64,000 nt of DNA from Naegleria gruberi (taxonomy: Eukaryota). This document shows positions 23,432-57,944 of this stretch, piece after piece; positions within the stretch are counted from its first letter, which is position 1, and the number at the start of each line of letters is the position of its first letter. The stretch is from NCBI GenBank assembly GCA_000004985.1, contig GG738913.1; one strand, written 5' to 3'. Below the pieces are notes generated by a model, which was given only the letters and a program-made list of their open reading frames with translations, made no database searches and was not told the origin of the DNA. The position numbers and the translations under genes are program-made.

Positions 23432-25801
23432 ATGTCCATCAACAAGATTTTCACACACAATTTGGGTTTCCCAAGAATTGGAGCTCGTCGTGAATTGAAA
23501 CAAGCTTTGGAATCCTACTGGTCATGTAAAATTGATTTGAATGCATTGGAATTAGTCGGTACTCAATTGAGAAAGCAACATTGGGAACAACAATTACAAG
23601 CTGGTCAATTGGATTTAATTCCAGTTGGTGATTTTGCTTGGTATGATCAAGTTTTGGAATGGACAACAACTATTGGATGTATTCCAAAACGTCATCAATC
23701 TGATTCTGCTCAAGATCAACCTTTCCACTTGGATACTTTGTTTAGAATGGCACGTGGTAGAGCTCCAACTGGTCAACCAGCAGCTGCTTGTGAAATGACC
23801 AAGTGGTTTGATACTAATTATCACTTCATCACTCCAGAAATCAAATTGAATCAAGAATTTGCTCTTTCTCGTACTTTCCTCTTTGAGCAAGTTAAGGAAG
23901 CTGAACAAGTTTTGGGAATTGATCGTGTCAAGCCAGTTATTATTGGACCATTGACTTGGTTGTACTTGGCAAAGGGTGAGGAATTTGTTGGTTCTCTTGA
24001 TTCTAAGAAATTGACTCTTTTGGAAAAGTTGTTACCAGTTTACAATCAAGTTTTACAACAATTTAGTCAACTTGGTGTTAAATGGACTCAAATTGATGAA
24101 CCTGTTCTCTGTTTGGATTTGAATGATGAATGGAGACAAGCTTTCCAAACTTTCTATCAACAATTGAATCAATCCAAGAAGCTTAACATTTTGATTGCTA
24201 CCTATTTTGGAAATTTGTTGGACAACTTGAAAACTTTGGTCAATTTGCCAGTCGAAGCCATTCACATTGATGCTGTTCGTGCTCCACAACAACTTGCACC
24301 TGTATTGGAATCTCTCAAAAATTCCTCAAAGATTTTGTCAGTTGGCTTAATTGACGGAAGAAACATTTGGAGAAGTGATTTGGATGCTTGCATTGAAACT
24401 ATTCAAAAAGTTATCATTGGAGAATTCAAATTTGATGCTTCTCGTTTGTGGCTTTCTCCTTCCTGTTCCCTTTTACATGTTCCTTTCGATTTGAAATACG
24501 AAACTAAAATCGATGCAGAATTGAAGAGCTGGTTGAGTTTTGCTGTTCAAAAGCTGGAAGAGTTATCTTTGTTGGGTTATGCAGCCCTTCTTAAAGATGG
24601 ATGCGAAGGTTCAATTCCTTCCAATATCTCTTCTCTTCTCGCCACTCAAAGATCTGCAATCGAATCTAGAAGAAACTCTGTTAGAATCCACAATCCACAA
24701 GTCAAGTCCAGAATGAATGAATCCATCTCAACAGACAGATCACATCCATTCGATGATAGAAAGAAGGCTCAACAATCCAAATTCCATCTCCCAAAGCTTT
24801 TCCCAACCACCACCATTGGATCTTTCCCACAAACTCAAGAAATTCGTTCCATTCGTTTGAAATACAAGAATGGAACTGTTTCACGTGAATTATACGAAAA
24901 GTTCATGAAGGAAGAAATTGAGAAAGTTGTTCGTCTTCAAGAGGAAATTGGTTTGGATGTTTTGGTTCACGGAGAACCTGAAAGAAATGACATGGTTGAG
25001 TATTTTGGTGAATTGATGAATGGTTATGCATTCACTGAGAATGGTTGGACTCAATCATTTGGTAGCAGATGTGTTAAGCCACCTGTTATCTTTGGAGATA
25101 TTTCACTTGATAAGCCAATGACAGTTGAATGGTCTTCATATGCTCAATCTTTGACTGATAAGCCAATGAAGGGTATGTTAACTGGTCCAGTTACTATTTT
25201 GAACTGGAGTTTCGTCAGAGATGATCAACCAAGAAGTGAAACTTGTAAGCAATTGGCTTTGGTTTTAAGAGATGAAGTGCTCAACTTGGAAAAGGCAGGA
25301 ATTAAGATTATTCAAATTGATGAACCAGCTGTAAGAGAAGGTTTGCCATTGAGAAAATCTGACTGGAATACCTATTTGAAATGGGCAGTTGACTGCTTCA
25401 AGTTGACAACATCAGGTGTTGAAATTGATACTCAAATTCACACTCACATGTGCTATTCTGAATTCAATGACATTATTGACTCAATTGGTGCAATGGATGC
25501 TGACGTGATTAGTATTGAAACTTCTAGATCTAATATGGAATTATTACAAGCTTTTGAAGATTTCAAATATCCAAATGATATTGGTCCAGGTGTTTATGAT
25601 ATTCACTCTCCAAATGTTCCAAATGTTGAATGGATGGTCAAGTTGATCAAGAATGCTATTGAAAGAATTCCAAAGGAAAATATTTGGATAAATCCTGATT
25701 GTGGTTTGAAGACTCGTGGATATCAAGAAGTTAAGCAAGCTTTAATTGCTATGGTCCAAGCAGCTCAACAATTGAGAACTGAATTTGAAACTTGTCAATA
25801 A
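23432..25801 (+). CDS. metE: cobalamin-independent methionine synthase (5-methyltetrahydropteroyltriglutamate-homocysteine S-methyltransferase, MetE)
   Basis: MSINKIFTHNLGFPRIGARRELK start. Both MetE halves are present, with the C-terminal Zn site (HxC...E...C: IHTHMCYSEF...DCGLKTR). 789 aa in a single exon. Confidence 0.95.
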   Translation: MSINKIFTHNLGFPRIGARRELKQALESYWSCKIDLNALELVGTQLRKQHWEQQLQAGQLDLIPVGDFAWYDQVLEWTTTIGCIPKRHQSDSAQDQPFHLDTLFRMARGRAPTGQPAAACEMTKWFDTNYHFITPEIKLNQEFALSRTFLFEQVKEAEQVLGIDRVKPVIIGPLTWLYLAKGEEFVGSLDSKKLTLLEKLLPVYNQVLQQFSQLGVKWTQIDEPVLCLDLNDEWRQAFQTFYQQLNQSKKLNILIATYFGNLLDNLKTLVNLPVEAIHIDAVRAPQQLAPVLESLKNSSKILSVGLIDGRNIWRSDLDACIETIQKVIIGEFKFDASRLWLSPSCSLLHVPFDLKYETKIDAELKSWLSFAVQKLEELSLLGYAALLKDGCEGSIPSNISSLLATQRSAIESRRNSVRIHNPQVKSRMNESISTDRSHPFDDRKKAQQSKFHLPKLFPTTTIGSFPQTQEIRSIRLKYKNGTVSRELYEKFMKEEIEKVVRLQEEIGLDVLVHGEPERNDMVEYFGELMNGYAFTENGWTQSFGSRCVKPPVIFGDISLDKPMTVEWSSYAQSLTDKPMKGMLTGPVTILNWSFVRDDQPRSETCKQLALVLRDEVLNLEKAGIKIIQIDEPAVREGLPLRKSDWNTYLKWAVDCFKLTTSGVEIDTQIHTHMCYSEFNDIIDSIGAMDADVISIETSRSNMELLQAFEDFKYPNDIGPGVYDIHSPNVPNVEWMVKLIKNAIERIPKENIWINPDCGLKTRGYQEVKQALIAMVQAAQQLRTEFETCQ

Positions 25802-34693: not shown

Positions 34694-37600
34694 TTATTTG
34701 AATAAGCGAACTAGTTGATAGATTATGAAAATAACCAACATAGCATGGAGAAGGAAATGCACAATCATTGATTTGCTTATCAATGATGACTGCTTTCGTT
34801 CTACAGATTCGAATTGGACGTGTAAAATTCTCATACTTGAAGCCATCAATCCAGCAAATGGAATCCAACTTGGTGCCATGAATGGATATCTTTCTTTCAC
34901 GCCACCAATTTGTTGTCTTTCCTCCATTTGGTATTGCTCTGAAACTAGCTTTGCCTTTCTGTGAAGGGAATGCACAAATGGTTCAGCATCGACAACAAAG
35001 GATTTGAATGGACCTCCCTTATTGAGAGATTTCACAGAGCTTGGTGTGAAGAAATACGGAGCAAAGCCTGACATTTCAAAAAGAATATTACTACCTGGTA
35101 GTTTCTTTTCCAACATTTCGAATATTTGAACAAGTTGTGACTTTTCAAAGTAGAGGAATAGACCTTCTGCAATTACCAAAACTGGAATTGACTCACCAAA
35201 TGATTTTCTTATGAAAGCAAGATCTGAAAATGTTGATTCTTCTAGAATAGATCCACTTTTACATTCGTATAGTGGTTGTTTCGTATTGTCATTATTGTTA
35301 ACAATATTAAAAACTTGTCTTCTCAATTCAATGACATTTGGCAAATCAATATCAATCCAATGCACCTTCTCATTCATTCCAAATAATCTTTCATATCTAG
35401 AACACAATCCACATCCCAAATTAACAATCATTACCTTTTCATGCTTAGCCAAACTCTTACTCACAAATTCTTGTGATTTCCTATCCAAGACAATAGTTCT
35501 CCCAACAATATTAGTTCTGGTAATTCTATCATTCTGAACATCAACAGAGAGATCTTCTGGTAAGTTTTGGAAGATTTTCACAGCAATTGGATCATATAAA
35601 ATTCCATCGCTTTCAAGAGATTCGAGAGCTCTGGAAACGAGTGGAATGTAGAGAGTTCTTTCGAGAGGTGTGAGGACAGAGTTCTTATCTTGAGCAATGT
35701 CTACGTCAAAAGGAGTTGGATTATGTGATGATTGTTGTGGAGAGCCAAGAATGGAATGTGAAATAAGATTCGAATAATGTTTGTCAAGTTGATGTCCACA
35801 ATTCTTAACAGTAATAATATTCAATCCATTTCCTGCAAACTTATTCCAGTTGTTAATTGTATTTCCTGTTACTAATTTATCAAATTCGCCTCTGAGAGCA
35901 ATAACTGGACAGTCAACTTGGTATTTTCCAAAAATGTCATCGTCATAACAATGATATTTCAATAAAAAGTCAAATTGGTGTTTGAAAAGTGGAATTTCCA
36001 TCAAATCTCTAATCTTCTTTGCCTTTTCATCCAAGTTCTCAATTCCTTCTGTTACATTAGGGAACAAGTCAAGATCGACAATTCCATAAATGATCGATTG
36101 ATCTCCCAAAGTTTTAAATTTCACATAAGAATCACCATGAAGCGAATTTCCAGGAGCATTTCCACTAACAATCAATTTTACAGGTTTCTTATTGAACTTG
36201 AATTGAATAAATCTTGTAAATTCAAGAGCAACCAAAGCACCCATGCTGTGTCCATAGATTGTAACCGTATTGGAATTAAATAGTTGATGGACACAATCCC
36301 AAACTTGCATGAAATGAGCAGTCCAATCAGAATTATTTCTCAAATAATCCAAATTAATCACATAAATGGAAAATTCTTCAAGATTTAAATCTCTAAAATC
36401 ATGAACTGTTCCACCAAGTGCTGGAAAACAGAGTAAAACATTCTCTGATGATCTTTCTTGGATAGTTTCTAATAACAAGTGCTTTTCTAATGAATTGGTT
36501 TGATTTGGACTATTAGATTGTTGTGTTAATTGTTGATTGGATGATTTTCCAGAATTGGAAATCATTTCAACAAGAGTAGAAACCGAAACTCCAGATAAGA
36601 GAGTCGAAACTGTAATACTTGATGAAAATTCTCTTGATAGAATATTTCTTATTTCTACACTCATGAGAGAATCAAGACCATAGTCAACAAGTGGTTTCTC
36701 CAGTTGAATTTCACTTTCGTCCATTCCAAAAACTTTGGATACAATATCTGAAACCTTTCTAACAATTCCATCAACGTTAGAATCTGTAGTTGTTGATTTT
36801 CCTTCAATATTTGATTCCTTTCTTTGACGACCAAATGTTACATGAGGTGAAAGTGAATCCTCAGGCATTTCAAATCCAAAGAAGGTCATTGCAGGAGGAA
36901 GATCCATCTCGTGTTCAATCAAATATTCGAAATGATCAAGTAAATCATGAACATGCATAGCTCCAACCCAGAAATATTCATCAACTTCTGCCTTAGTTGC
37001 ATATCCAGCTCCTGTAATCAAACTTAGACCTAAAGATTGTCCAGCCAATCCACAACTTCTTCTATAGCTACACAAAGATTCTAAGAAATAATTTCCACTA
37101 TTATAGTTTGATTGACCGAATGCTCCAACCAAAGAACTGAAAGAGCTCAACATTAAAAAAGTGGATAGATTGCAATTGAGCTTGATTGAACATTGGTGAA
37201 GGTTGAAACCTCCGAGAATCTTTGGTCTGGCAACAGTTTCGTACTTTTCTTTTGTCATCTTATTTGCAGCACAATCGGATAAAACCATTGCTGAATGGAC
37301 AATTCCTGTAATTGGGAATTTTTGATGGATTTCTTGCATTGTTTGATAAAGAGTTGAGTAATTGCAAATATCAGTAATGTAAACATCAATAGATGCATTA
37401 GGGTTATTCAGCATAATCTTGTCAATGATCAATTTTTCAGATTTGTTTGGCATTCTTCTTGTAAGAAGGGCAATGTTTGAGACTTTCATCTTTTCAACAA
37501 GCCATTCGCACATCTTTAATCCAATTCCACCCAATCCTCCACTAATAACCCAACAACCGTTATTCAATATCTTCTTTTGAGATGTCAAAGAATTATAAAT

Positions 37601-40600
37601 AACATTGGAATAAAAGTGAACAAATCTTCCACTTTCAGAATAAACAATTTCATCATGAGTATAAACAGATTCAAGGACATCATCAACAATTTCACCAATT
37701 GAGTTTTCTGAACATTTAGGTTGCATATCAATAACCTTTAACTTCTTTTGGAATATCTCAGTTTGAATTGATCTCAAACATCCAACAATAGAAGATTGAG
37801 AAATGTTACATTCCTGATTGTAACCAAAAACTGAACTAGTTAGAGCAACGAATTTACATCTGCCAGTATTGAACTTGAGTATCTTACAAATTGAGTACAT
37901 AGATTCCACACAATTGGAAACTGTTTCAAACTCGAAAGAGCTTAAAGAAAGTGGCCAACCGAAAATAATTCCACAGATATTCAAAGTTTGATTGAATATT
38001 GATTCGAAATGTTCAAAATCTGCAGGATTAATAACGAATCCAGAATCAAGTTGTTGGAATTTTTCACCTTGAATAATTTTGACAACTTTTACACCTCTAG
38101 ATTTCAATTCTTCACACAATAAATTTTCCTTTTGTGTTTCAGAAGAGAAGAACAACCATCTCTCAACATTTTTCTCTTTCTTCTTTGCTATAATGTAATT
38201 TGCAGTACCAATTGGCAACATGACATTTGAAGGGAAATCACAATCCAATAAAACTTGTTCCCACTCATTTCCTGATAGCAAAGCAGATTGCTTTCTGAAG
38301 GAATCCTTAAAATACCACCATCCCTTCAAAGTACCAACGAAAAAGTGTAAAAATTGAGCTCCAAGAGGATCAGACTCAACTAGGACTAATTGACCATTGG
38401 AAACCAACAAGCTTGAAATGAGTGAAAAGACGGATTTCAAATCTTGAGTAGCATGAACAACATTAGCAGCGATTACCAAATCAAACGAATCCTTTTCAAT
38501 GAATTCTGAAGAAACAAATGGCTTTTCAATATCTAATAAAGAAAATTCCATAAAATATTCGAATTGTGCAAACTTTTCCTTTGCCTTCACCAAAAACAAT
38601 GGTGAAATGTCTGTGAAAACATACTTCACATCTATATAATCTCTCAATGAATCAAGAATTGGTAAAATTTGTTTGGTTGTTCCTCCAAGTCCAGCTCCAA
38701 TTTCCAAAATTCTCAAAGTCTTCTTTTTACCATTCTTTGGAATGGAGTTCAAAATAAAATCAAACAATGGTTTAGTTTGATGAGAAACTTCATCATAATA
38801 ATCATTCAATACATGTTCTTTTCTTGAAAATAGGACAGAAACAGGATCTGCCTCACCAGTTAATAATTGCTTCATGTGAATTAAACTATTTTCCACCAAA
38901 TCGATCAGATTGGAATAAAGATCAATTCTTGGAAATTCTCTCAAGGATTTGATAATATTAAATCTATTAGGAAGATCACTAACTACTGTATAAGTATCTG
39001 AATCATATTGGACAAGATTCATTTGTAAAGCCAACTCAATAGTCAATTGAGCAAGTCTCTTCAAATGTTCTGGTTGAATCCTAGAATTCAAAACAGAAAG
39101 CTCGATAGTAGAACTTTCACATAACTCTTGGAATACATTCAAACAATATTCAACACAAACCTTGGTAACAAATCTATTAAGAGATTCGTGTTCGTTTGAG
39201 TATTCATTGAGTTTGAAATTGAGAATAAACTCTTGCAATGATTCCATAGAAGGAAGAATAGATTTAGAATAGATTGGTTGTGGTGCAAAGTTTGATGATA
39301 CAATAGAAGTTTCTTGAAGTTTCTTTTCTTTGGTTTCCAAAGGTGAAACTTTGAAACCATTGAAAGAAATAAATGGCTCATTAGATTCTCCCAAAACTTG
39401 TAAATCACAAGTAATTTCTTTTGTTTGAGCATTCTTCGAATATTTAACACATCTGGTGATGGTGTGTTTCGAATTGTTTGGTTTTCTATGTGGGATGATT
39501 GTAATTTCGTCTGTGGAAATTGGAAGATAGGTTGTATCCTCTGGCATTGAACAAATCATCATTTGGAAACATGAATCAAGCAATGCAGGATGCCATGTAC
39601 AATATCTTTCGTCATTTTCCAAAGCTTTTGGATGGGAAATTTGTGCCATCAAAACTTCTCTTGTTTCGTCATGTCCAACTTGGCTGTACAAATCCAATCC
39701 TTGGAAACAAGGTCCATAATTGAGGCCACATTTGGACAGATTGAAATAGATATTCTCCTTATGAATGTTTTGTGTTTTTTCATCAAGATTTTCTGTGAAA
39801 TTTCTGAAAATATCAAAGGCTTTCAATTCTCTGTTTGTGAAATTGATGGAATCACCAGAATTAGAAGAATCTAGAGTTTTGAAAGAACCAAAGGCATGTA
39901 AAGTCCAATCACAAGGTAGCTTATTTGATAACTTGGAAGGATCTTTGGAAATTTCTGAATAATTAATAGATAACAAGTCAACCTTCTTTTTGCTGAAAAT
40001 TCTAAACTCATTAGCATACAAATTCAAATGAACTTGAACAATTCTAGGCTCTTGTTGTAAAATCATTGGATTTACCACTTTGAAATTGACTAGACGAAGC
40101 TCTTCAACATTCTTGGACGAGTTATCAAGAATTGCTGCAGAACTAATCTCAACGAAACCAGAATATGGGAAGAATACTTCATTTTCAATCTTGTGATCTC
40201 TAATATACATTTGATCAGTGTTAGAACTAATATCAATAAGACTCTCATAGATAATATCTGGAGAATTTTCCATTGGATTGAATTTTCTGTTACCCAAAAG
40301 TGGATGATTAATAGTTTCGAATTGACCAATTCTCCATCTCAAAGATTCATAAGATTCTGACCAACAAGATTGTTTCTGGAAAGGATATTTAGGAATTCCA
40401 TCCAATATCTTACTATTCTCTCCATATCTATTAATTTGTTTCCAATCAAGTTTAGAATATCCATTCACAAACAATGAGGAGACAACTTGTAACAAACTCA
40501 TTTGTTCATCCTTCTTTCTAATCAATGTTGGAATTACAGAAATAGAATCTTCATTTCCTAATGAAGAAGACGAAATATCCTTAATGTATCCATTCAAAAC

Positions 40601-43184
40601 CGGATGGGAAGATATTTCAATAACATATTTGATTGAGTTTTTGTAAGTGTGAAAAATCTCTTCCATAGCTTGTGAAAACAAAACCTTCCCTCTGACATTA
40701 TTCCACCAATATTCTGGTGTTGACATTTCTTGGAGGTTTGACTTTCTTCCAGTGACAGTAGAGAAAACGGCTTGAATATTATCATTTGGTTTGGTTCCTC
40801 TTTCCTTTTTTGAGATTCTATTAGAAAGAACTTCTAATAACTCTTTCTTGATTACTTCCATATGGCTGGTATGGAATGCAGCTTCATTTCTCAAAAAGAC
40901 ACAGTTGACTCTTGAGTTTGGTTCATTTTCCACATACTTGGTGAGATCAAGTTGCAATTGTTTCAACACATGTTCTTCACCACCAACTACAACGGAGGAA
41001 TTACTATTTACAGATGCAATCTCAACAGTATTGTTAAATCCAAGAATATCCAAAATTGAGGCCAATTTGTCCAATCCTAAATTGATAGCCATCATTTTAC
41101 CTGTTTTAGAAAATTCTTTCAAGATGGTTGCACATTTGTTTTGCAATCTTGCTCTATGATAAATCAAGAATACAGCTTCCTCTAGAGTGAGGCATCCATG
41201 CACGTATGCAGCTGTCACTTCTCCAACTGAATGTCCAACAACAATTCGAGGAGTGACTCCATATGATTTCAATACTTCATAACAACCACATTGTACTGCA
41301 AAGATACATGGTTGAGCAATGTTGGTTGAGTAAATTCTGGTGTCCTTTTCTGTTCTTGTAGTCAACTCTTCTACAATTGACCACTTGTCATTGGTTGGCA
41401 TTATCTTTTGCATTTCTGAATCAATTCTTTCAACTGTGGCAGAGAAAACATTGTTGGTTTCCAATAATTGTCTTCCCATAGCAAACCATTGAGGTCCTTG
41501 TCCAGAGAAAACAAAGCAAATATCGGATTTTTCTTCTCTCTTGCTTGAGTTACCAATGCTAGTTGATTCATTAGATGAAAAATTGGAGGACAATTGGAGG
41601 AGCTTTTCAACGAGCTCATCTTTGTTGTTGTAAATGATAGAAGCTCTGTAGTCTCTGAATTGACTCTTCTTTTCACAATAGTTGAAAAGTAAATCATCTT
41701 GATTGCATTGAGCTGAAAACTCAGCAACGCTACTAGACATCATCTTGAGTGAGTATTCACTCTTGGCAGAAAGTGGAAGAATTCTAATACCTTCTGATAT
41801 GCTATTCTTTCTTTGATGTTCTAATTGCTCAACACTTTGCAAGATGCAATGAGCATTAGTACCACCCATACCAAAGGAATTAATTCCAATAATAACAGGA
41901 TTGATATTAGAAGGGATTTCTTCTTCTTGCATGACAACTCTAATTTGTTTCTTCTCAAACTCAATGTGAGGATTGAGTGTGCTCTCAGTGCAATGAATAC
42001 TCTTAGCTATCTTCCTATGTTTCATCATGAGAATAGCTTTGATAATACTTGCAATCCCACTTGTTGCCTCTGTGTGACCAATATTACTCTTGACAGAACC
42101 AATTGGTAACTTGTCAAGTTTGTGCTTTCTTCTTTCTCTTCCAAAGAATGAATCAAGAGCTTGAGTTTCAATCTTATCTCCAATAGTAGTTCCAGTTCCA
42201 TGACTTTCAACATAATAAACATGTTGTGGAGGAATGCCACTCTTGTTGTACACTTGTTCCAATAATTCAACTTGTCCTTCCAGAGAGGGCATTGTTATTC
42301 CACTCTTTCTTTCTCCATCGTGATTGACCCAAGTTGACATGATCAAAGCATGAACTCTTTCATGTTGTGAAGAATTCGCATGCTTGTATGTGTTGATGAT
42401 GAGATGATGAATCTAATTTCTTCAAAATTAATACAGCAACACCTTCAGATTTTCCATAACCATCAACATGTGAAGAGAAGGTTTTACATCTTCCATCTGG
42501 TGCTGCTGCTCCAATAAGCTTTTGAGATACAAATTCTTGTGGAATGTAGTTTAAATTAACTCCAGCAACAATGGCCATTTCGCATTCATCTCTCTGTAAA
42601 CTTTCACATGCACAATTGAGTGCTACCAAACTTCCTGAACACATGGTATCGAGAGTGAATGACGGGCCTCTCAAATCGAAATGATACGAAATCCTGGCAG
42701 AATTGTTAGCTGGTGAAGAGTTTATCAAACTGTACGAGTTGTAAGTTTGCATGTCATGCCAGCCTTTCATGGTGAGATAATCTTGGTTCATCACAGAACA
42801 AAACACACCAATGTTTCTTCCTCTGATTTCTTCCCATTTAATTCCAGCATCCTCCAAGGCAATGTAAACTTGTTGAAGAAGGAGACGATGTTGTGGATCC
42901 ATGGAGCATGCTTCCTTCTTGGAAATTTCAAAGAATTCAAAATCAAACTCATCTAATGGTTTCTCCAAGAAGTGAGCCCTGTTGTAGGTTTGCTTATTGT
43001 TGTGGAATCTTGATGATTGTCTTTCCTTTGGTATGGTTGAGCTGGTGTCACTACCGTCAAGAAGAACTTGCCAGAATGATTCAACATCCACTGCCTGTCC
43101 AGGGAACATACAACTCATTCCAATGATGCCCATTGGTGAGTTTTCAGCAGAGTTTGATGGAGTAGTAGAATTGATAGAAATCAT
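34694..43184 (-). CDS. iterative type I polyketide synthase, KS-AT-DH-cMT-KR-ACP-TE-(TcmP/LCM-type O-methyltransferase)-TM; KS domain frameshifted at ~42363..42390 (two ORFs 42360..43184 and 34694..42346)
   Basis: ATG at 43182-43184 (MISINS...IIGMSCMFPG). KS motifs TMCSGSLVAL, HGTGT and GGTNAH. AT GHSVGE. DH HPLLGNRKF. cMT LEIGAGLGGTT. KR GGLGGIGL. ACP GLDSLMSVE. TE GHSMGALVALEF. LCM/TcmP-family VNLGCGLCSRYERL. C-terminal helix IVHFLLHAMLVIFIIYQLV. No ER domain. Confidence 0.9.
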
Positions 43185-43536
43185 TTTCTTAATTACAAAG
43201 GTATAGAGTGTTGGTCTTTTTTCTTATAAATTAAAAAACAATAATCAAACACCAAACCATTTTAAATCATGAGTGGTCATTAGCAATTTGGAATCAGCAA
43301 TAACAACAATAATTCATTATTGTCTCATACTGCTAGATAAGTCACAAGAACTTGTTACTTTCCTTTTTAAATCTGCCGCTCTCAGCCAAGTCACAAGTTC
43401 AGCCATTATGAACTAGTTTTTTTCAATGGAGTAGTTCAACTAAGAGATTCAGAAGAGTTCGCATCACTGATACTGAAGTGTTTGTTAGTATAAAAGCTTC
43501 GGGAATCACTGATTGTGATAATACAATTCAATTGTG

Positions 43537-43573
43537 GGAGTTCGGATGTTGATGTTCTTGAGATACGAACTCC
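43537..43573. promoter_or_regulatory. perfect 8-bp inverted repeat (GGAGTTCG...CGAACTCC) with 21-nt loop in the PKS / oxidoreductase intergenic region
   Basis: Seen directly in the sequence. It lies between divergently oriented genes, and aagtcacaag direct repeats lie nearby (43331..43400). Confidence 0.3.
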
Positions 43574-43705
43574 TTGTGATGAAAAAGTGTTGATGATACT
43601 AATCACCCCGGTTCCAATAACAAGTTCTGAATGAGAGTCTGGTCAGTGATACGAGCCCTTTTTATTGGCATCTTGATATGGATTGGATAACATTAAAAAA
43701 TTATC

Positions 43706-45380
43706 ATGATTATCTACATACTTGTGGCTATTCCATTTCTGTTTCTTCTCTATGTTGGCTATCTATTGTGCAAGTTGTATGTATTCAACAGATATCCAAA
43801 GAATGTTTTTCTGGCGCCGCACTATCTAACAGAGAATGTTGTCCAAACCAAAAAGTTCAACAAGAATCCTTTCAAGAAAGAAAAACTTGCAGAGCATTAT
43901 GATGCAATCATTATTGGCTCAGGTGTTAGTGGCATTATTTGGGCAAGATGATAGGTCCAGAAAGTGAGCTGATGGATCTTCTCTGTGATAGAAAATTGAG
44001 ATGTTGTCCCTTGATGAGAACTTTGATAATCTGTCCATTATTAATTCTGCTACAAATGAAAAGTTGTTAGAAATAGAAATTCCTGAAGGTCAAGACAAGT
44101 TAATCAAAAAGCTCAAAGAAGTCTTTCCAGAAGAATCCAAAGCCATTGATGAGTATGTTGAGATATCGTTTCCACCAAAGTATGAAATTATTCCAGTTAT
44201 TATTTTAAAGTGTTTCCCATTCATATTTTCCAAATTATTCAAGTATCTAGTTGCACCAAAATTTATGAATTATGTCCATACTAGTATTGGTCAAGCTCTT
44301 GACAAATTGACGTCCAATCAGCTTCTTAAGAGTGCCATTTGCTATATTGGCATAGATTATGGTTCAAATCCAAAAGCAACTCCACTCTATGAGCATTCAA
44401 TGATTCACAATATTTTCAAGAATGGTGGTCACATTCCAAAGGAAGGAGCAGACGATATTGTCGAAAGTTTGATAAAGGTCATTAGAAAAGGAGGTGGAGA
44501 TGTGATGAGCAAGGCAAATGTTGCTTCAATCCACATCAATAAGGAAGGAAAATGTGGAGGAGTGTGCGTGTTAAAGAACAAGGACTCTATCATTATTGAA
44601 TCTCCGATTGTAATTTCATCTGCTGGAGTTTACAATACTTATTCAAAGCTCATTCCTCGTCCAATAAGAGAAAAACTTGGCTACAATCACTTCAAGTACA
44701 CGCCTTCATATTCTGTTCAGGCAACCTTCCTTGGCTATGATGGCACAATAGAAGAATTAGGATTAAAGTTCCAAAACTATTTCATCATGACTAACCCTGA
44801 TTTTGATGGTCAATTTACCAGATACATGGAAAGTGATGGAGATATTGACCCAAAGAATGGCATTGATATTCCAATCTTGATAGCCAATCTCAGACCTTAT
44901 AATAACAAGGTTTCAATGACTATCCTCAGCTTTGCCAATCATGCATGGTTTCAAGAGTGGAACCATCAACGAGTTGGACAACGTAGTGTTGACTATGAAG
45001 ACTTGAAGGAGAGAATTGCCAATCGAGCCCTCGAATTATTATACATGAAACATCCACAACTTGAAAATAGACACTCTGTAATGAGTACTTCCTCACCAAT
45101 TACATTTAATCATTATCTATCCAATAATTTTGGAGATTACATGGGTTTTAAGAGAGTGGTTGGTAATGATGATGGTGTATTCCGTTGGGGAAGGCCAATG
45201 TCCAATCTGGAGAATTTGTTTTTGGTTGGGCAGGATATCTTTGCAGGAGGTGTGCAGGGAGCAATGTTGAGTGCTTTAATTACATGTGGATGCGTGTTGA
45301 GGAGGAATTTGTTTGATGACTTGGCAAAGGCCGTTGAAGAGATGAAGAAGTGGAAGGCTTTGCTATTTTGTTTTAAATAA
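43706..45380 (+). CDS. RetSat/CrtISO-like FAD-dependent oxidoreductase (phytoene-desaturase family), apparently internally deleted (ORFs 43706..43951 and 44001..45380)
   Basis: N-terminus: TM helix plus NPFKKEKLAEHYDAIIIGSGVSG (FAD GxGxxG), collinear with RetSat residues ~1-80. The second ORF is collinear with RetSat residues ~150-end (LKSAICYIGIDYGSNPKATPLYEHSMIHNIFKNGGHIPKEGADDIV... and C-terminal LFLVGQDIFAGGVQGAMLSALITCGCVLRRNLFDDL). The ~70 residues expected between them (rest of the beta-alpha-beta FAD fold) have no coding space (only 49 nt). Confidence 0.65.
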
Positions 45381-46045
45381 CTTTTATTAATTATTTTTTT
45401 TAATTGGGAATCATATTCAAAACTATTCTTACGAGGTCTTCCTCTTGGTCGTTTAGGAAGACTCTTCTTTAATTCTTGTTCTTCCTTCATGGACTCTATT
45501 GTTGATATGAAGAATGTATTATTGTTACCTTTGGTACTTATGACGGTGTTGTTATTATTGGTATTTACAGGGGTGGTAGAAGAGGAGCTGCTAGTGGAGT
45601 AAGCAAGGATCGTCCTATGATTGTTATTATTATTAATATTTACAAATGATGATAAAGATTTTGGGGTTTGTTGCTTGCATTCTTCCATGATAGCAACATT
45701 GTTATTATTAGGAACAACATAATTATTGGATAAATTCAGTGGCTGATTCAATAGTGCCTTGTTTAGATGGTGATTGTTCATTGGCCAATTGTTGTTATCT
45801 TCATCATATGATGGAAGGAAGGAATCATCCACTGTGGGAGCATAATTCTCATGGTAAGGATTATTATTGGAGCTACTTAAAAGCAGATACAACAAGAATA
45901 GTGTCTGCTCGTTTGTGATATTGAAAGGTGAATGGTTTGGAAGCATTTGTTTTGTTACTGGTACCATAACTAATAACACATTATAATAGCCATTTACTAT
46001 GGTATGTGAACCCTGCATTCCTACTCTTCTGGAAATATATCTCAT
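45137..46045 (-). CDS. single-AT-hook protein, family member 3 (3' end uncertain: ORF runs antisense into the 3' end of the neighbouring gene)
   Basis: ATG at 46043-46045. TLFLLYLLL motif. STIESMKEEQELKKSLPKRPRGRPRKNSF at ~45428..45510. The other two family members terminate 23-27 codons after PRK, so the true stop or an intron probably lies near 45380-45420. Confidence 0.5.
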   Translation of the reverse strand: MRYISRRVGMQGSHTIVNGYYNVLLVMVPVTKQMLPNHSPFNITNEQTLFLLYLLLSSSNNNPYHENYAPTVDDSFLPSYDEDNNNWPMNNHHLNKALLNQPLNLSNNYVVPNNNNVAIMEECKQQTPKSLSSFVNINNNNNHRTILAYSTSSSSSTTPVNTNNNNTVISTKGNNNTFFISTIESMKEEQELKKSLPKRPRGRPRKNSFEYDSQLKKIINKSYLKQNSKAFHFFISSTAFAKSSNKFLLNTHPHVIKALNIAPCTPPAKISCPTKNKFSRLDIGLPQRNTPSSLPTTLLKPM

Positions 46046-51418: not shown

Positions 51419-54400
51419 TTAAGCCAAGTTAAGTTGTCCAATCAATACAATACAAATCAACACTAAATATACCAATGAAATTGCAGTTGCTGATGCTTCA
51501 GACACACGTTGACTTTTGGATGGTGTCACATTTTTGCTTCCAGAAGTTTTTGGAGTAGTGATACTCTTGCTTGGTTGAGGAATTGAGCCACCAGAAGAAG
51601 TGGATGGTGTTGGAGTAACTGTCTGTTCACACAAACCATTAACCAATGATTCTCCTTGAGAACAAGTTAAGGAAACTTTTCTAATTCTATTGTTCGAATC
51701 ATCTGAAATGTATAATTCACCTACTGAGCTCACTGCCAAACCTGTTGGAAAGTTCAATTGAGCACTTGTTGGTAAAGACCCATCTCCGCTCAATCCTGCA
51801 ATTCCATTTCCAGCACTTGTGCTAATAGTTCCATTGACATTCAATTTACGAATTCTATGGTTATACGAATCAGCAATGAACAAATCACCAGTTGAGCTAA
51901 CAACTAGGCCACTTGGATAATTCAATTGATAAAGTGATGCATTATTTCCTTCACCATTATATCCAGCTGTTCCATTTCCAGCAATTGTTGTAATTATTCC
52001 ATTCAATGAGACCTTACGAATTCTATGATTATTAGTGTCAGAAATCAGCAATTCTCCATTGGAATTGACTGCTACATAGCTTGGATTATTTAATGTGGCA
52101 CTTGTTGCAAGACCACCATCTCCACTAAAACCTGCAACTCCACTTCCAGCCACAGTGCTAATATCACCATTGGTTGCAATCTTTCTAATTCTATGATTAT
52201 TCGAATCAGCAATGAAAATTTCACCACTTTTTGAGCTAATTGCAAATGATTGAGAATTCAAATAAGAGTTAACTGCAGAAGAGCCATCGCCCAAACCACC
52301 AGCAACTGTACTAATCTTTCCACTAGAAAGTTTACGAATTCTTGAATTGAAAGAATCAATAATGAAAACGTCACCGTTCGAATTGGAAGAAACTCCACTT
52401 GGATAATTGAAACATGTACTTGTGGCTGCCAATCCATCACCATTGAAACCAATCGCTCCACTTCCAGCAATGGTTGAAATGTATCCATTCGCAGCTACCT
52501 TTCTAACTCGTTGATTGTATTGGTCAGAAATATAAATTTCTCCAGAGTTTCCAATAGAAATGCTGAATGGGAAATTGAGCTTGGCATTGGTAGCTAATCC
52601 ATTATCTCCACTGAATCCAGAAGTTCCAGTTCCTGCAACAGTTGTAATGATACCAGAGGATGAAGAAACCTTTCGAATTCTATGATTACCAGAATCGGCA
52701 ATATAAATATCATTATTAGTCAAATTGACTGCTACTGCAAATGGAACGAACAATTGAGCATTAATGGCCAACCCATTATCTCCGCTAAATGTTGCCTTAT
52801 ATGCAACTGTTCCATTACCAGCAATTGTTGAAATATAACCACTAGTAGAAACTTTACGAATTCTATTATTACGAGTATCGGTGAAAATCAATTCACCATT
52901 TGAATTCATTGCAATTCCATTTGGATAATGGATTTTGGCAGATATGGCCAGCCCACCATCTCCACTGAATCCAGATTCTCCACTTCCTGCCACAGTTGAA
53001 ATGATACCACCAGTTGAAATCTTTCTAATTCTGTGGTTTTCAGAATCGGAAAAGTAAATTTCACCACTCGAGCTCACTACCACTCCTTTTGGATTATTCA
53101 ATTTGGCACTTGTAGCAGAGGAGCCATCTCCACTGTAGCCACTTGTGCCAGTTCCAGCAATTGTTGTAATGTAACCATTCGAAAGTTTACGAATCTTGTG
53201 ATTGGAAGAATCTGAAAAGTAAGAGTCACCATTAGAAGAGATGAAAATAGAGTTTGGATTATGTAATCTTTCAGTGATTGCTAACCCATCGCCACTGTCA
53301 GCTCCAATAGCACCAGTTCCTGCTACAGCTGTCAAACTTGATTTGATTTTTGACAAATACGAACCAAGATACATGACATATACTTCATTATTATAATAAC
53401 TAACTGCAGAACCCAAAGGAGTTACTGAACTAAGAGTGGAAATTACATTAGTTGACAAATCAACTCTTCTAACTTTTCCATTATCAGTAAATAAAAGATT
53501 ATTTCCATAAATAATAGGATTTCCATTTGGAGAAACAAATGATTTGCTTGCTTGAACATCCTCTCCAAAACTTGAGGTACCAGCAAATGTTGAAATCACC
53601 CCACTTGCAGAAATCTTTCTAATTCTATGATTATACGAATCTGAAATGAAAATTTCACCTACAGAGTTGACCACAATTCCAGAAGGCAACCACAATTGAG
53701 CATTAACGGCCAAACCACCATCTCCACTCAATCCAACAGTTCCTGTTCCTGCAATTGTAATAATGGTACCATTTGTCAAAATCTTTCTAATACGATTGTT
53801 AACAGAATCTGAAATGAAAATTTCACCATTCGAATTGACTGAAATTCCACTTGGATAATTCAATTGAGCATTCTTTGCCAAGATGGAATCTCCATTAAAA
53901 CCAGCAGTTCCAGTTCCTGCAACTGTAGTGACAATACCACTATTCGAAATCTTTCTAATTCGATGATTTCTTGAATCTGCTACAAATAGTTCACCATTCG
54001 AATAGAATGCTGCTCTTGGTGCATTGAATTTGGCATTTGTGGCCTGTCCATTATCACCACTGTATCCAGCAGCTCCAGTTCCTGCAATAGTTGTGATATT
54101 TCCAATGGAGGAAACCTTTCGAATAACATTATTAGAAGTATCGACAATAATAACTTCACCACTTGAGGAATTAAGAGCTAAACCGTATGGAGAGTTTAAA
54201 AGCGCATTCGTAGCAAGACCCCCATCACCACTATAACCATAGGATGAGGCAGTTCCAGCAATGGTTGAGATTTTTCCATTTGTAGAAACCTTTCGAATAA
54301 CATGATTGGAGGTATCAGCAATGAAAGTTTCTCCCAAAGAATTAACAATTACACCATAAGGAAAGTTAATTTCGCTCTGTGTAGCCAATGCACCATCTCC

Positions 54401-54709
54401 ACTAAATGAAGAAGTACCAACGCCTGCAAAAGTTGAAACATCACTAGACGAAACCTTTCTAATACGCTGATTAAACGTATCAGCAATAAGAATTTCACTA
54501 TTCAAGCCTAATGCTATCCCATACGGATATCTCAAGAGAGCATTCCCTGTCATTCCATCACCAATTTTACTTCCACCTCCAATCAATGTTGAAATTTTGA
54601 CAGTTGGCAAGGAAGTTGAATGGACATGTGGAAAATTCATCATCACAACGATGAATGTAATGAGCAACCATATGGTAACGAGAATTTTCAATGGTTTGCG
54701 TGAAATCAT
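51419..54709 (-). CDS. secreted, GPI-anchored NHL-repeat protein (>=14 NHL repeats)
   Basis: ATG at 54707-54709 and a signal peptide. A reiterated ~50-aa unit ...G.GDG..A..A.LN.P.G.A..S.G...I.D..NHRIRK(V/I)S.NG.I.T.AG... (NHL/YD-type beta-propeller blades). S/T/P-rich stalk and hydrophobic tail LVYLVLICIVLIGQLNLA. Confidence 0.85.
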   Translation of the reverse strand: MISRKPLKILVTIWLLITFIVVMMNFPHVHSTSLPTVKISTLIGGGSKIGDGMTGNALLRYPYGIALGLNSEILIADTFNQRIRKVSSSDVSTFAGVGTSSFSGDGALATQSEINFPYGVIVNSLGETFIADTSNHVIRKVSTNGKISTIAGTASSYGYSGDGGLATNALLNSPYGLALNSSSGEVIIVDTSNNVIRKVSSIGNITTIAGTGAAGYSGDNGQATNAKFNAPRAAFYSNGELFVADSRNHRIRKISNSGIVTTVAGTGTAGFNGDSILAKNAQLNYPSGISVNSNGEIFISDSVNNRIRKILTNGTIITIAGTGTVGLSGDGGLAVNAQLWLPSGIVVNSVGEIFISDSYNHRIRKISASGVISTFAGTSSFGEDVQASKSFVSPNGNPIIYGNNLLFTDNGKVRRVDLSTNVISTLSSVTPLGSAVSYYNNEVYVMYLGSYLSKIKSSLTAVAGTGAIGADSGDGLAITERLHNPNSIFISSNGDSYFSDSSNHKIRKLSNGYITTIAGTGTSGYSGDGSSATSAKLNNPKGVVVSSSGEIYFSDSENHRIRKISTGGIISTVAGSGESGFSGDGGLAISAKIHYPNGIAMNSNGELIFTDTRNNRIRKVSTSGYISTIAGNGTVAYKATFSGDNGLAINAQLFVPFAVAVNLTNNDIYIADSGNHRIRKVSSSSGIITTVAGTGTSGFSGDNGLATNAKLNFPFSISIGNSGEIYISDQYNQRVRKVAANGYISTIAGSGAIGFNGDGLAATSTCFNYPSGVSSNSNGDVFIIDSFNSRIRKLSSGKISTVAGGLGDGSSAVNSYLNSQSFAISSKSGEIFIADSNNHRIRKIATNGDISTVAGSGVAGFSGDGGLATSATLNNPSYVAVNSNGELLISDTNNHRIRKVSLNGIITTIAGNGTAGYNGEGNNASLYQLNYPSGLVVSSTGDLFIADSYNHRIRKLNVNGTISTSAGNGIAGLSGDGSLPTSAQLNFPTGLAVSSVGELYISDDSNNRIRKVSLTCSQGESLVNGLCEQTVTPTPSTSSGGSIPQPSKSITTPKTSGSKNVTPSKSQRVSEASATAISLVYLVLICIVLIGQLNLA

Positions 54710-57402: not shown

Positions 57403-57944
57403 TTTTTTCCTTGATGATTCGTATTAAAAAGAAGCAATCGATGGATTATAATGTCACACCTTCATAATTAAATCGGGTGGCTACTTGACATCTTGTGCTC
57501 ATCAACATACCACCCGCAAGAATCCTTGCCAAACATTGTTTCAGTGTGCTTATTGATATTCACTTTTCAATTATTACAATAAAATATTTGAATTGATTTG
57601 GAAGAGACATTGTTAATTATTGTAGTTGATATAATTGATATTGAACGAAAATTATAAAGATGAAACCTGTTATCTGTTAATATCTTTGAACGGTTGGATA
57701 TTTTGGCCCATGTTTGGGTTCTCATTGTTAAATTCTAACAAACGTCTGGATAAAATAGTTGTGTGGCTAAACCCTTCGGAAATTTCAATGCTGATTTCGT
57801 GATTTGAAAGCACTTAATCTAGAGTTGAATATCCAGAAATTAATAATGGAATGGTATGTAGATTCCATTTATTCCATTGTATAAGATTTACAGTAGTAGC
57901 AGATGATGAAGGTGTGAAATCTTATTGTGTGTTTAATCCATCAT

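Follow-up and report, generated by a model that had tools for sequence, protein, structure and literature searches.

An apparent 2-nt deletion in a native loop, rather than a foreign insertion, splits the ketosynthase frame of a Naegleria gruberi polyketide synthase gene

A polyketide synthase (PKS) gene in a 64,000-nt stretch of Naegleria gruberi DNA (contig GG738913.1; hereafter the window) is interrupted within its ketosynthase (KS) domain, which raises the question of what interrupts it. The original prediction, made from the letters of the window, took 28 nt carrying adjacent SphI and EcoRI sites for a frameshifting insertion and offered a recent pseudogenizing event, a cloning or assembly artefact, or an engineered disruption scar as explanations. 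The window is nuclear DNA of N. gruberi strain NEG-M. Its G+C content of ∼34% and densely packed ORFs that are nearly free of introns are consistent with this organism, and exact-sequence look-up matched individual ORFs to the N. gruberi proteins EFC37878/XP_002670622, EFC37875, EFC37923, EFC37920, EFC37926, and EFC37879, which share a single scaffold of 236,320 nt; five window ORFs were counted as exact N. gruberi matches, four of them with NCBI accessions. Neither of the two PKS ORFs had an exact-sequence match in the protein collection searched; judged from accession order only, the annotated gene model is probably EFC37927 / D2VZ44. The literature searched on N. gruberi and polyketide synthases includes statements, in broad terms, that PKSs are encoded by Naegleria genomes, and does not discuss the locus.

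The division of the KS domain between two minus-strand ORFs (Table 1) was verified by the ORF listing and by Pfam. The upstream ORF matches PF00109 (ketoacyl-synt N) over profile positions 3-250 of 252 with 224 bits (cut-off 20.8), and the downstream ORF opens with PF02801 (Ketoacyl-synt_C) from profile position 4 with 122 bits (cut-off 20.8). Translation also reproduced the sequences that had been quoted at the junction: the first ORF ends ...LKKLDSSSHHQHIQACEFFTT before its stop codon (at greater length, ...GYGKSEGVAVLILKKLDSSSHHQHIQACEFFTT), and the second frame continues with the conserved KS block ERVHALIMSTWVNHDG (at greater length, ...TYKHANSSQHERVHALIMSTWVNHDG...). In alignments with two solved PKS KS domains, their catalytic Cys/His/His motifs (typically DTACSSS, HGTGT, and GH) lie opposite DTMCSGS, ESHGTGT, and SNIGHTE. 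The domain has both the N and C subdomains and the Cys-His-His triad of a type I PKS ketosynthase. The triad is split, with the cysteine encoded by the upstream ORF and both histidines by the downstream ORF. Pfam matches following KS-C in the downstream ORF are AT, DH, C-MT, KR, ACP, a weak TE-like domain, and an LCM-type methyltransferase; no ER domain was detected in the Pfam scan, and the 2550 codons of the 3' part contain no further stop or frameshift. Read from its domains, the gene is a single-module type I PKS of the order KS-AT-DH-MT-KR-ACP-TE-LCM, intronless and running on the minus strand from 43184 to 34694. The stub translated from the interrupted gene would keep the active-site cysteine (DTMCSGS) and lose both catalytic histidines and all downstream domains, and KS enzymology predicts that the allele is null because such a stub has neither the histidines nor any downstream domain. 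Re-initiation at the methionine at 42340 would, on the same grounds, yield a protein without the KS cysteine. At the C-terminus (34694..35500, minus), the weak thioesterase match is followed by a PF04072 leucine-carboxyl-methyltransferase-type domain and a hydrophobic tail (...FLLHAMLVIFIIYQLVRLFK), an order of TE-like and LCM-type domains that is unusual among type I PKSs.

Table 1. Features at and around the interrupted ketosynthase domain (window coordinates).
Feature	Position	Strand	Basis or remark
PKS 5' part (KS N-terminal subdomain)	42360..43184	minus	ORF listing, 274 aa; Pfam
PKS 3' part in the -2 frame	34694..42412	minus	ORF 34694..42346, 2550 aa; Pfam
Lesion: AT, centre of the palindrome GAAATTTC, missing relative to L001; -2 frameshift	42374..42375	minus	Pairwise alignments
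Premature TGA in the shifted frame	42360..42362	minus	Closes the 274-aa product
28-mer ATACAAGCATGCGAATTCTTCACAACAT	42362..42389	minus	Single occurrence in the window
EcoRI site GAATTC	42372..42377		Product of the 2-nt deletion; intact allele lacks it
SphI site GCATGC	42378..42383		Native codons GCA TGC (Ala-Cys), in the window and in L001
CAT (His) codon of L001 missing; 3 nt, frame kept	42393..42394	minus	Pairwise alignments
FAD/NAD(P)-binding oxidoreductase, divergent neighbour	43706..45380	plus	Alignment to L001; broken into two ORFs

The nature of the interruption is given by a sister sequence. A 7,554-nt contig (L001) from an unrelated ENA metagenome assembly, ERZ929261 (run ERR1078381, project PRJEB11402), encodes a protein that falls into the same 90% cluster as the neighbouring gene's product (P0122) and aligns with window positions 38003..45401 at 98.5-99.5% identity (98.5% over 5.5 kb). 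Its PKS is a single open ORF of 1734 codons that continues past the contig end, and the translation across the site reads ...DSSSHHHQHIQACEISSQHERVHALIMSTWVNHDG (at greater length, ...LKKLDSSSHHHQHIQACEISSQHERVHALIMSTWVNHDG...). At the DNA level L001 has GCATGCGAAATTTCTTC where the window has GCATGCGAA--TTCTTC, or, over a longer stretch, GCATGCGAAATTTCTTCACAACATGAAAGA against GCATGCGAA--TTCTTCACAACATGAAAGA. This 2-nt gap is the only frame-changing difference between the two within 5.2 kb of PKS coding sequence; a single continuous frame through the KS domain exists in L001 and is lost in the window at 42374/42375. A foreign insertion is a segment absent from unmodified relatives, whereas L001 carries all 28 nt of the supposed insert plus 2 more, in frame. 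That another strain would contain the segment as a lineage-specific in-frame loop is the outcome the original prediction had itself named as counting against an insertion, and it is the outcome found. We conclude with near certainty that the lesion is a 2-nt difference, that the loop around it and the SphI site are native, and that the gene is intact in the sister strain.

Further relatives were sought in several ways. Non-reference cluster members were traced for three window proteins and all came from one metagenome. Among JGI metagenomes, a DNA pattern scan across the site returned 0 matches and a protein-seeded scan found no relatives. Project PRJEB11402 was not mentioned in the literature searched.

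The claim that the 28 nt, or about 9-10 codons, have no counterpart in KS domains was correct as far as the family consensus goes. Three candidate reconstructions of the KS domain were aligned with 60 homologues from a protein search, and in 60/60 homologues the LK.L strand is followed by a 10-11-residue gap before the D.I.A.I.G strand begins. Residue-by-residue alignments to two solved KS structures, 7zma (bacterial PKS) and 9nju (Dictyostelium Pks16), show this gap too. The homologues are distant. In a word-index search with the 28-nt-deleted KS as query, the best identity among the matches listed was about 40%, none exceeded 42%, and all were shorter than 850 aa; no Naegleria self-match was among them. 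A HMMER scan of cluster representatives with the 274-aa ORF gave matches dominated by multi-KS bacterial megasynthases. In Naegleria the corresponding residues are SSHH(H)QHIQACEISSQ, to which the 28-mer contributes HIQACE(I)SSQH, and they form a native, lineage-specific, low-complexity surface loop at the junction of the N- and C-terminal subdomains. With L001 taken into account, the 28-mer is native coding sequence for most of that 10-11-residue loop and not an insertion. Deleting the 28 nt does restore the frame, as had been stated; the resulting spacing, however, is one residue too long against the 60 homologues, and the product is not the native sequence. The loop is prone to indels, as the in-frame CAT-codon difference indicates; it falls in a TCATCATC... 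repeat and precedes the frameshift by 16-19 nt. A segment that resembles an insertion against a distant family consensus can thus be a native lineage-specific loop.

The 28-mer was quoted correctly, its position (42363-42390) one nucleotide off, and the two sites are indeed adjacent, forming the 12-mer GCATGCGAATTC, which is unique in the window (42372..42383). Their improbability is another matter. The window contains 39 copies of GAATTC, where shuffles predict 38, and 7 of GCATGC, and the EcoRI hexamer at the lesion is present because the central AT of the palindrome GAAATTTC was lost. With one half native and the other half, on the alignment to L001, a by-product of the deletion, the juxtaposition appears coincidental. 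The restriction site that aroused suspicion here was made by the indel itself.

The account that we favour would start with loss of the central AT of the palindrome inside the native low-complexity KS loop, creating GAATTC; the frameshift would send the ribosome into a TGA nine codons on and leave a 274-aa KS stub. The lesion would then be a genuine and very recent loss of function in the NEG-M lineage, or in one haplotype of it, and would belong to the decay of two divergently transcribed genes, the PKS and a flavin oxidoreductase. We infer the biological nature and the cause of the lesion, and hold the full account (a 2-nt PKS deletion in a native loop as a genuine recent loss of function in NEG-M) to be probable, with moderate confidence. 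Its main competitor, which we consider unlikely though by a good way the strongest of the alternatives, is a mistake of base calling or consensus building in the NEG-M Sanger draft of 2010, in which case NEG-M would truly read GAAATTTC and the gene would be intact.

Selection on the PKS is relevant to both. The 1726 codons that align between the window and L001 contain 36 synonymous and 20 non-synonymous differences, giving a dS of 0.035 and an overall dN/dS of 0.14 (0.086 upstream and 0.154 downstream of the shift). Neither a dN/dS near 1 nor further lesions, the marks of relaxed constraint in a pseudogene, were found in the PKS. A dN/dS of 0.14 implies purifying selection on the gene during virtually the whole period after the strains diverged, and together with the lack of a second stop it means that the lesion must be either very recent or spurious. 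Strong constraint on either side of the shift (dN/dS 0.14-0.15) and a solitary lesion in an otherwise open 8.5-kb gene count in favour of a draft error, from which they are expected equally. The adjacent A3 and T3 runs of the palindrome could, moreover, give two one-base undercalls. Against this, a multi-fold Sanger consensus rarely undercalls two bases, and a short AT-rich palindrome is atypical as a compression site. Control comparisons also weigh against error: in two further contigs of the L001 metagenome (L003 and L005, ∼5 kb), every indel relative to the window falls outside ORFs, although these controls, having been chosen by way of exact protein matches, are biased towards clean regions.

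A further argument against a draft error comes from the partner gene, which has two more frame-disrupting differences within 1.6 kb. The divergent oxidoreductase lies ∼520 nt upstream of the PKS start. In L001 (5704..7470) it is intact, encodes 588 aa, and has its Rossmann motif at residues 60-130, and two assemblies of the metagenome reads, L001 and L002, contain this longer form. The window has instead an 81-aa N-terminal ORF and a 459-aa ORF annotated as predicted protein EFC37878, the latter having no exact match in the contig index. Relative to L001, 136 nt are missing at 43931/43932, exactly between GGTTTG direct repeats (6 nt), which takes out the GxGxxG Rossmann motif, and a further nucleotide (A) is deleted at 43989. 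EFC37878 is an N-terminally truncated oxidoreductase, the ORF left downstream of these lesions. The repeat-flanked 136-nt deletion bears a signature of slippage or microhomology; such an event is impossible as a base-calling error. The 136-nt and 1-nt lesions favour a genuine recent decay of the gene pair. The stronger statement, that the PKS shift and both oxidoreductase lesions are all real and amount to a recent two-gene inactivation of secondary metabolism in NEG-M, with wild N. gruberi keeping both genes under purifying selection, is one we put forward tentatively, rating it somewhat short of even. In the intergenic region between the two genes, a shared promoter region, the window has a 37-nt segment (43478..43514) that L001 lacks, and the two also differ by a 1-nt indel at 43582.

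NEG-M was obtained by adaptation to axenic medium. As a conjecture, relaxed selection in long-term axenic culture may lie behind the decay, since an axenic history would relax selection on a metabolite presumably aimed at other microbes. NEG-M (ATCC 30224) is the sole N. gruberi genome in a recent Naegleria pangenome study (PMC9928731), where Naegleria is described as a mostly heterozygous diploid; NEG-M may therefore have a second PKS allele that is intact.

Much further down in probability is the idea that the interruption is bypassed, be it through a very short or non-canonical intron, through programmed ribosomal frameshifting (+1/-2), or because a split KS functions; we consider it very improbable. 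It draws some plausibility from the downstream frame, which is open from 42412, next to a TAG at 42413..42415, and overlaps the upstream frame by ∼50 nt, and from GT..AG intervals that would formally restore the frame. All such intervals, however, are at least 88 nt long (the shortest being 42442..42355) and lose the conserved strand GVAVLILKKL or more, and no GT..AG candidate spanning the stop both restores the frame and keeps the conserved residues. The judgement that an intron is unlikely because the 28 nt contain no GT..AG thus holds, and extends to the longer candidates, which delete conserved KS sequence. Inspection of the sequence at ACA ACA TGA A revealed no slippery heptamer. Since L001 differs by a simple 2-nt indel, there would have been no time for a recoding signal to evolve, and since it reads straight through, processing or a programmed frameshift would be superfluous; programmed frameshifting was rejected because the sister allele differs by no more than this plain indel. 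A functional split KS is contradicted by a 274-aa stub that lacks the catalytic histidines.

A 28-nt foreign insertion (a linker, a vector fragment, or a REMI/knock-out scar with SphI and EcoRI sites) is the least credible reading and can be given almost no weight: two adjacent 6-cutter sites and a frame restored with near-consensus spacing upon removal of the 28 nt are in its favour, but the environmental L001 has the same segment as in-frame coding sequence with the SphI site included, EcoRI sites occur at chance level, the spacing left is not that of the homologues, a 48-nt query against 72,556 PLSDB plasmid records produced chance matches only (E = 10), and an origin of L001 from the same engineered clone is implausible because L001 and the window diverge by 1.5% and differ by 2 nt at the lesion. 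The vector search that had been proposed for the 28-mer was made here among plasmids and gave no sign of such a source, and a vector, linker, or engineered scar was rejected because L001 carries the segment natively and the plasmid records show chance similarity only. From the original set of explanations, a recent pseudogenizing event and a sequence artefact survive. With scars of restriction-site cloning or REMI the locus shares only the adjacent SphI and EcoRI hexamers; unlike them, it has a segment that is native and occurs in an environmental relative, and one of its two sites was made by the deletion.

The favoured reading, a recent 2-nt deletion, places the locus among known phenomena. 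A 2-nt frameshifting deletion is an ordinary and already known kind of feature. Strain-specific frameshift null alleles (unitary pseudogenes) of secondary-metabolite synthases, as among the many Dictyostelium PKS genes and domesticated microbial strains, share with it a small indel in a low-complexity coding stretch that truncates a multidomain synthase. The window PKS is likewise otherwise intact, shows recent purifying selection, and has a damaged partner tailoring gene. Unlike in the established null alleles, the lesion in the window is only probably biological, a draft error being the less likely alternative. The synthase itself resembles iterative type I PKSs of the order KS-AT-DH-MT-KR-ACP, such as the fungal highly-reducing LovB (PDB 7cpx) and Dictyostelium Pks16 (PDB 9nju), in domain order and in the KS Cys/His/His motifs, and its KS matches solved KS domains with E-values of 1e-61 to 1e-145. 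It differs from LovB/Pks16-type PKSs in the extra 10-11-residue KS loop, in the lack of a detected ER domain, and in the TE-like plus LCM-type C-terminus.

The reference N. gruberi PKS model is broken at this site and deserves to be flagged, whether as an allele with a frameshift or as a potential error in the sequence, and for polyketide mining in Naegleria the intact sequence is better taken from wild strains. If the two-gene inactivation is true, the NEG-M reference strain would be a natural knock-out for an amoebal polyketide, and a wild relative would have been identified as the source of the intact pathway.

Additional length differences were observed in the comparisons with the metagenome contigs. 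In the C-methyltransferase region of the PKS, window position 38599 (minus) and L001 ∼598..612 differ by 15 nt in frame, with extra residues TYISP in L001 (TDISPTYISPLFLV versus TDISPLFLV in the window); one strain has apparently acquired a short tandem duplication, or the other has undergone a deletion. Elsewhere, window 2659..2979 (∼320 nt) and L003 1710..1885 (175 nt) do not align, and ∼260 nt at window 57415..57677, opposite L005 position 802, are present only in the window; these segments may represent length polymorphisms of introns or intergenic DNA, or else small mobile insertions.

Two other genes of the window were noted. At 23432..25801 (plus) lies an intact ORF for a 789-aa cobalamin-independent methionine synthase (MetE-type, by the UniRef name for D2VZ38); the axenic medium of NEG-M reportedly requires methionine. 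At 51419..54709 (minus), a 1096-aa protein has very strong Pfam scores for NHL / teneurin-type beta-propeller repeats, which make up most of its length.
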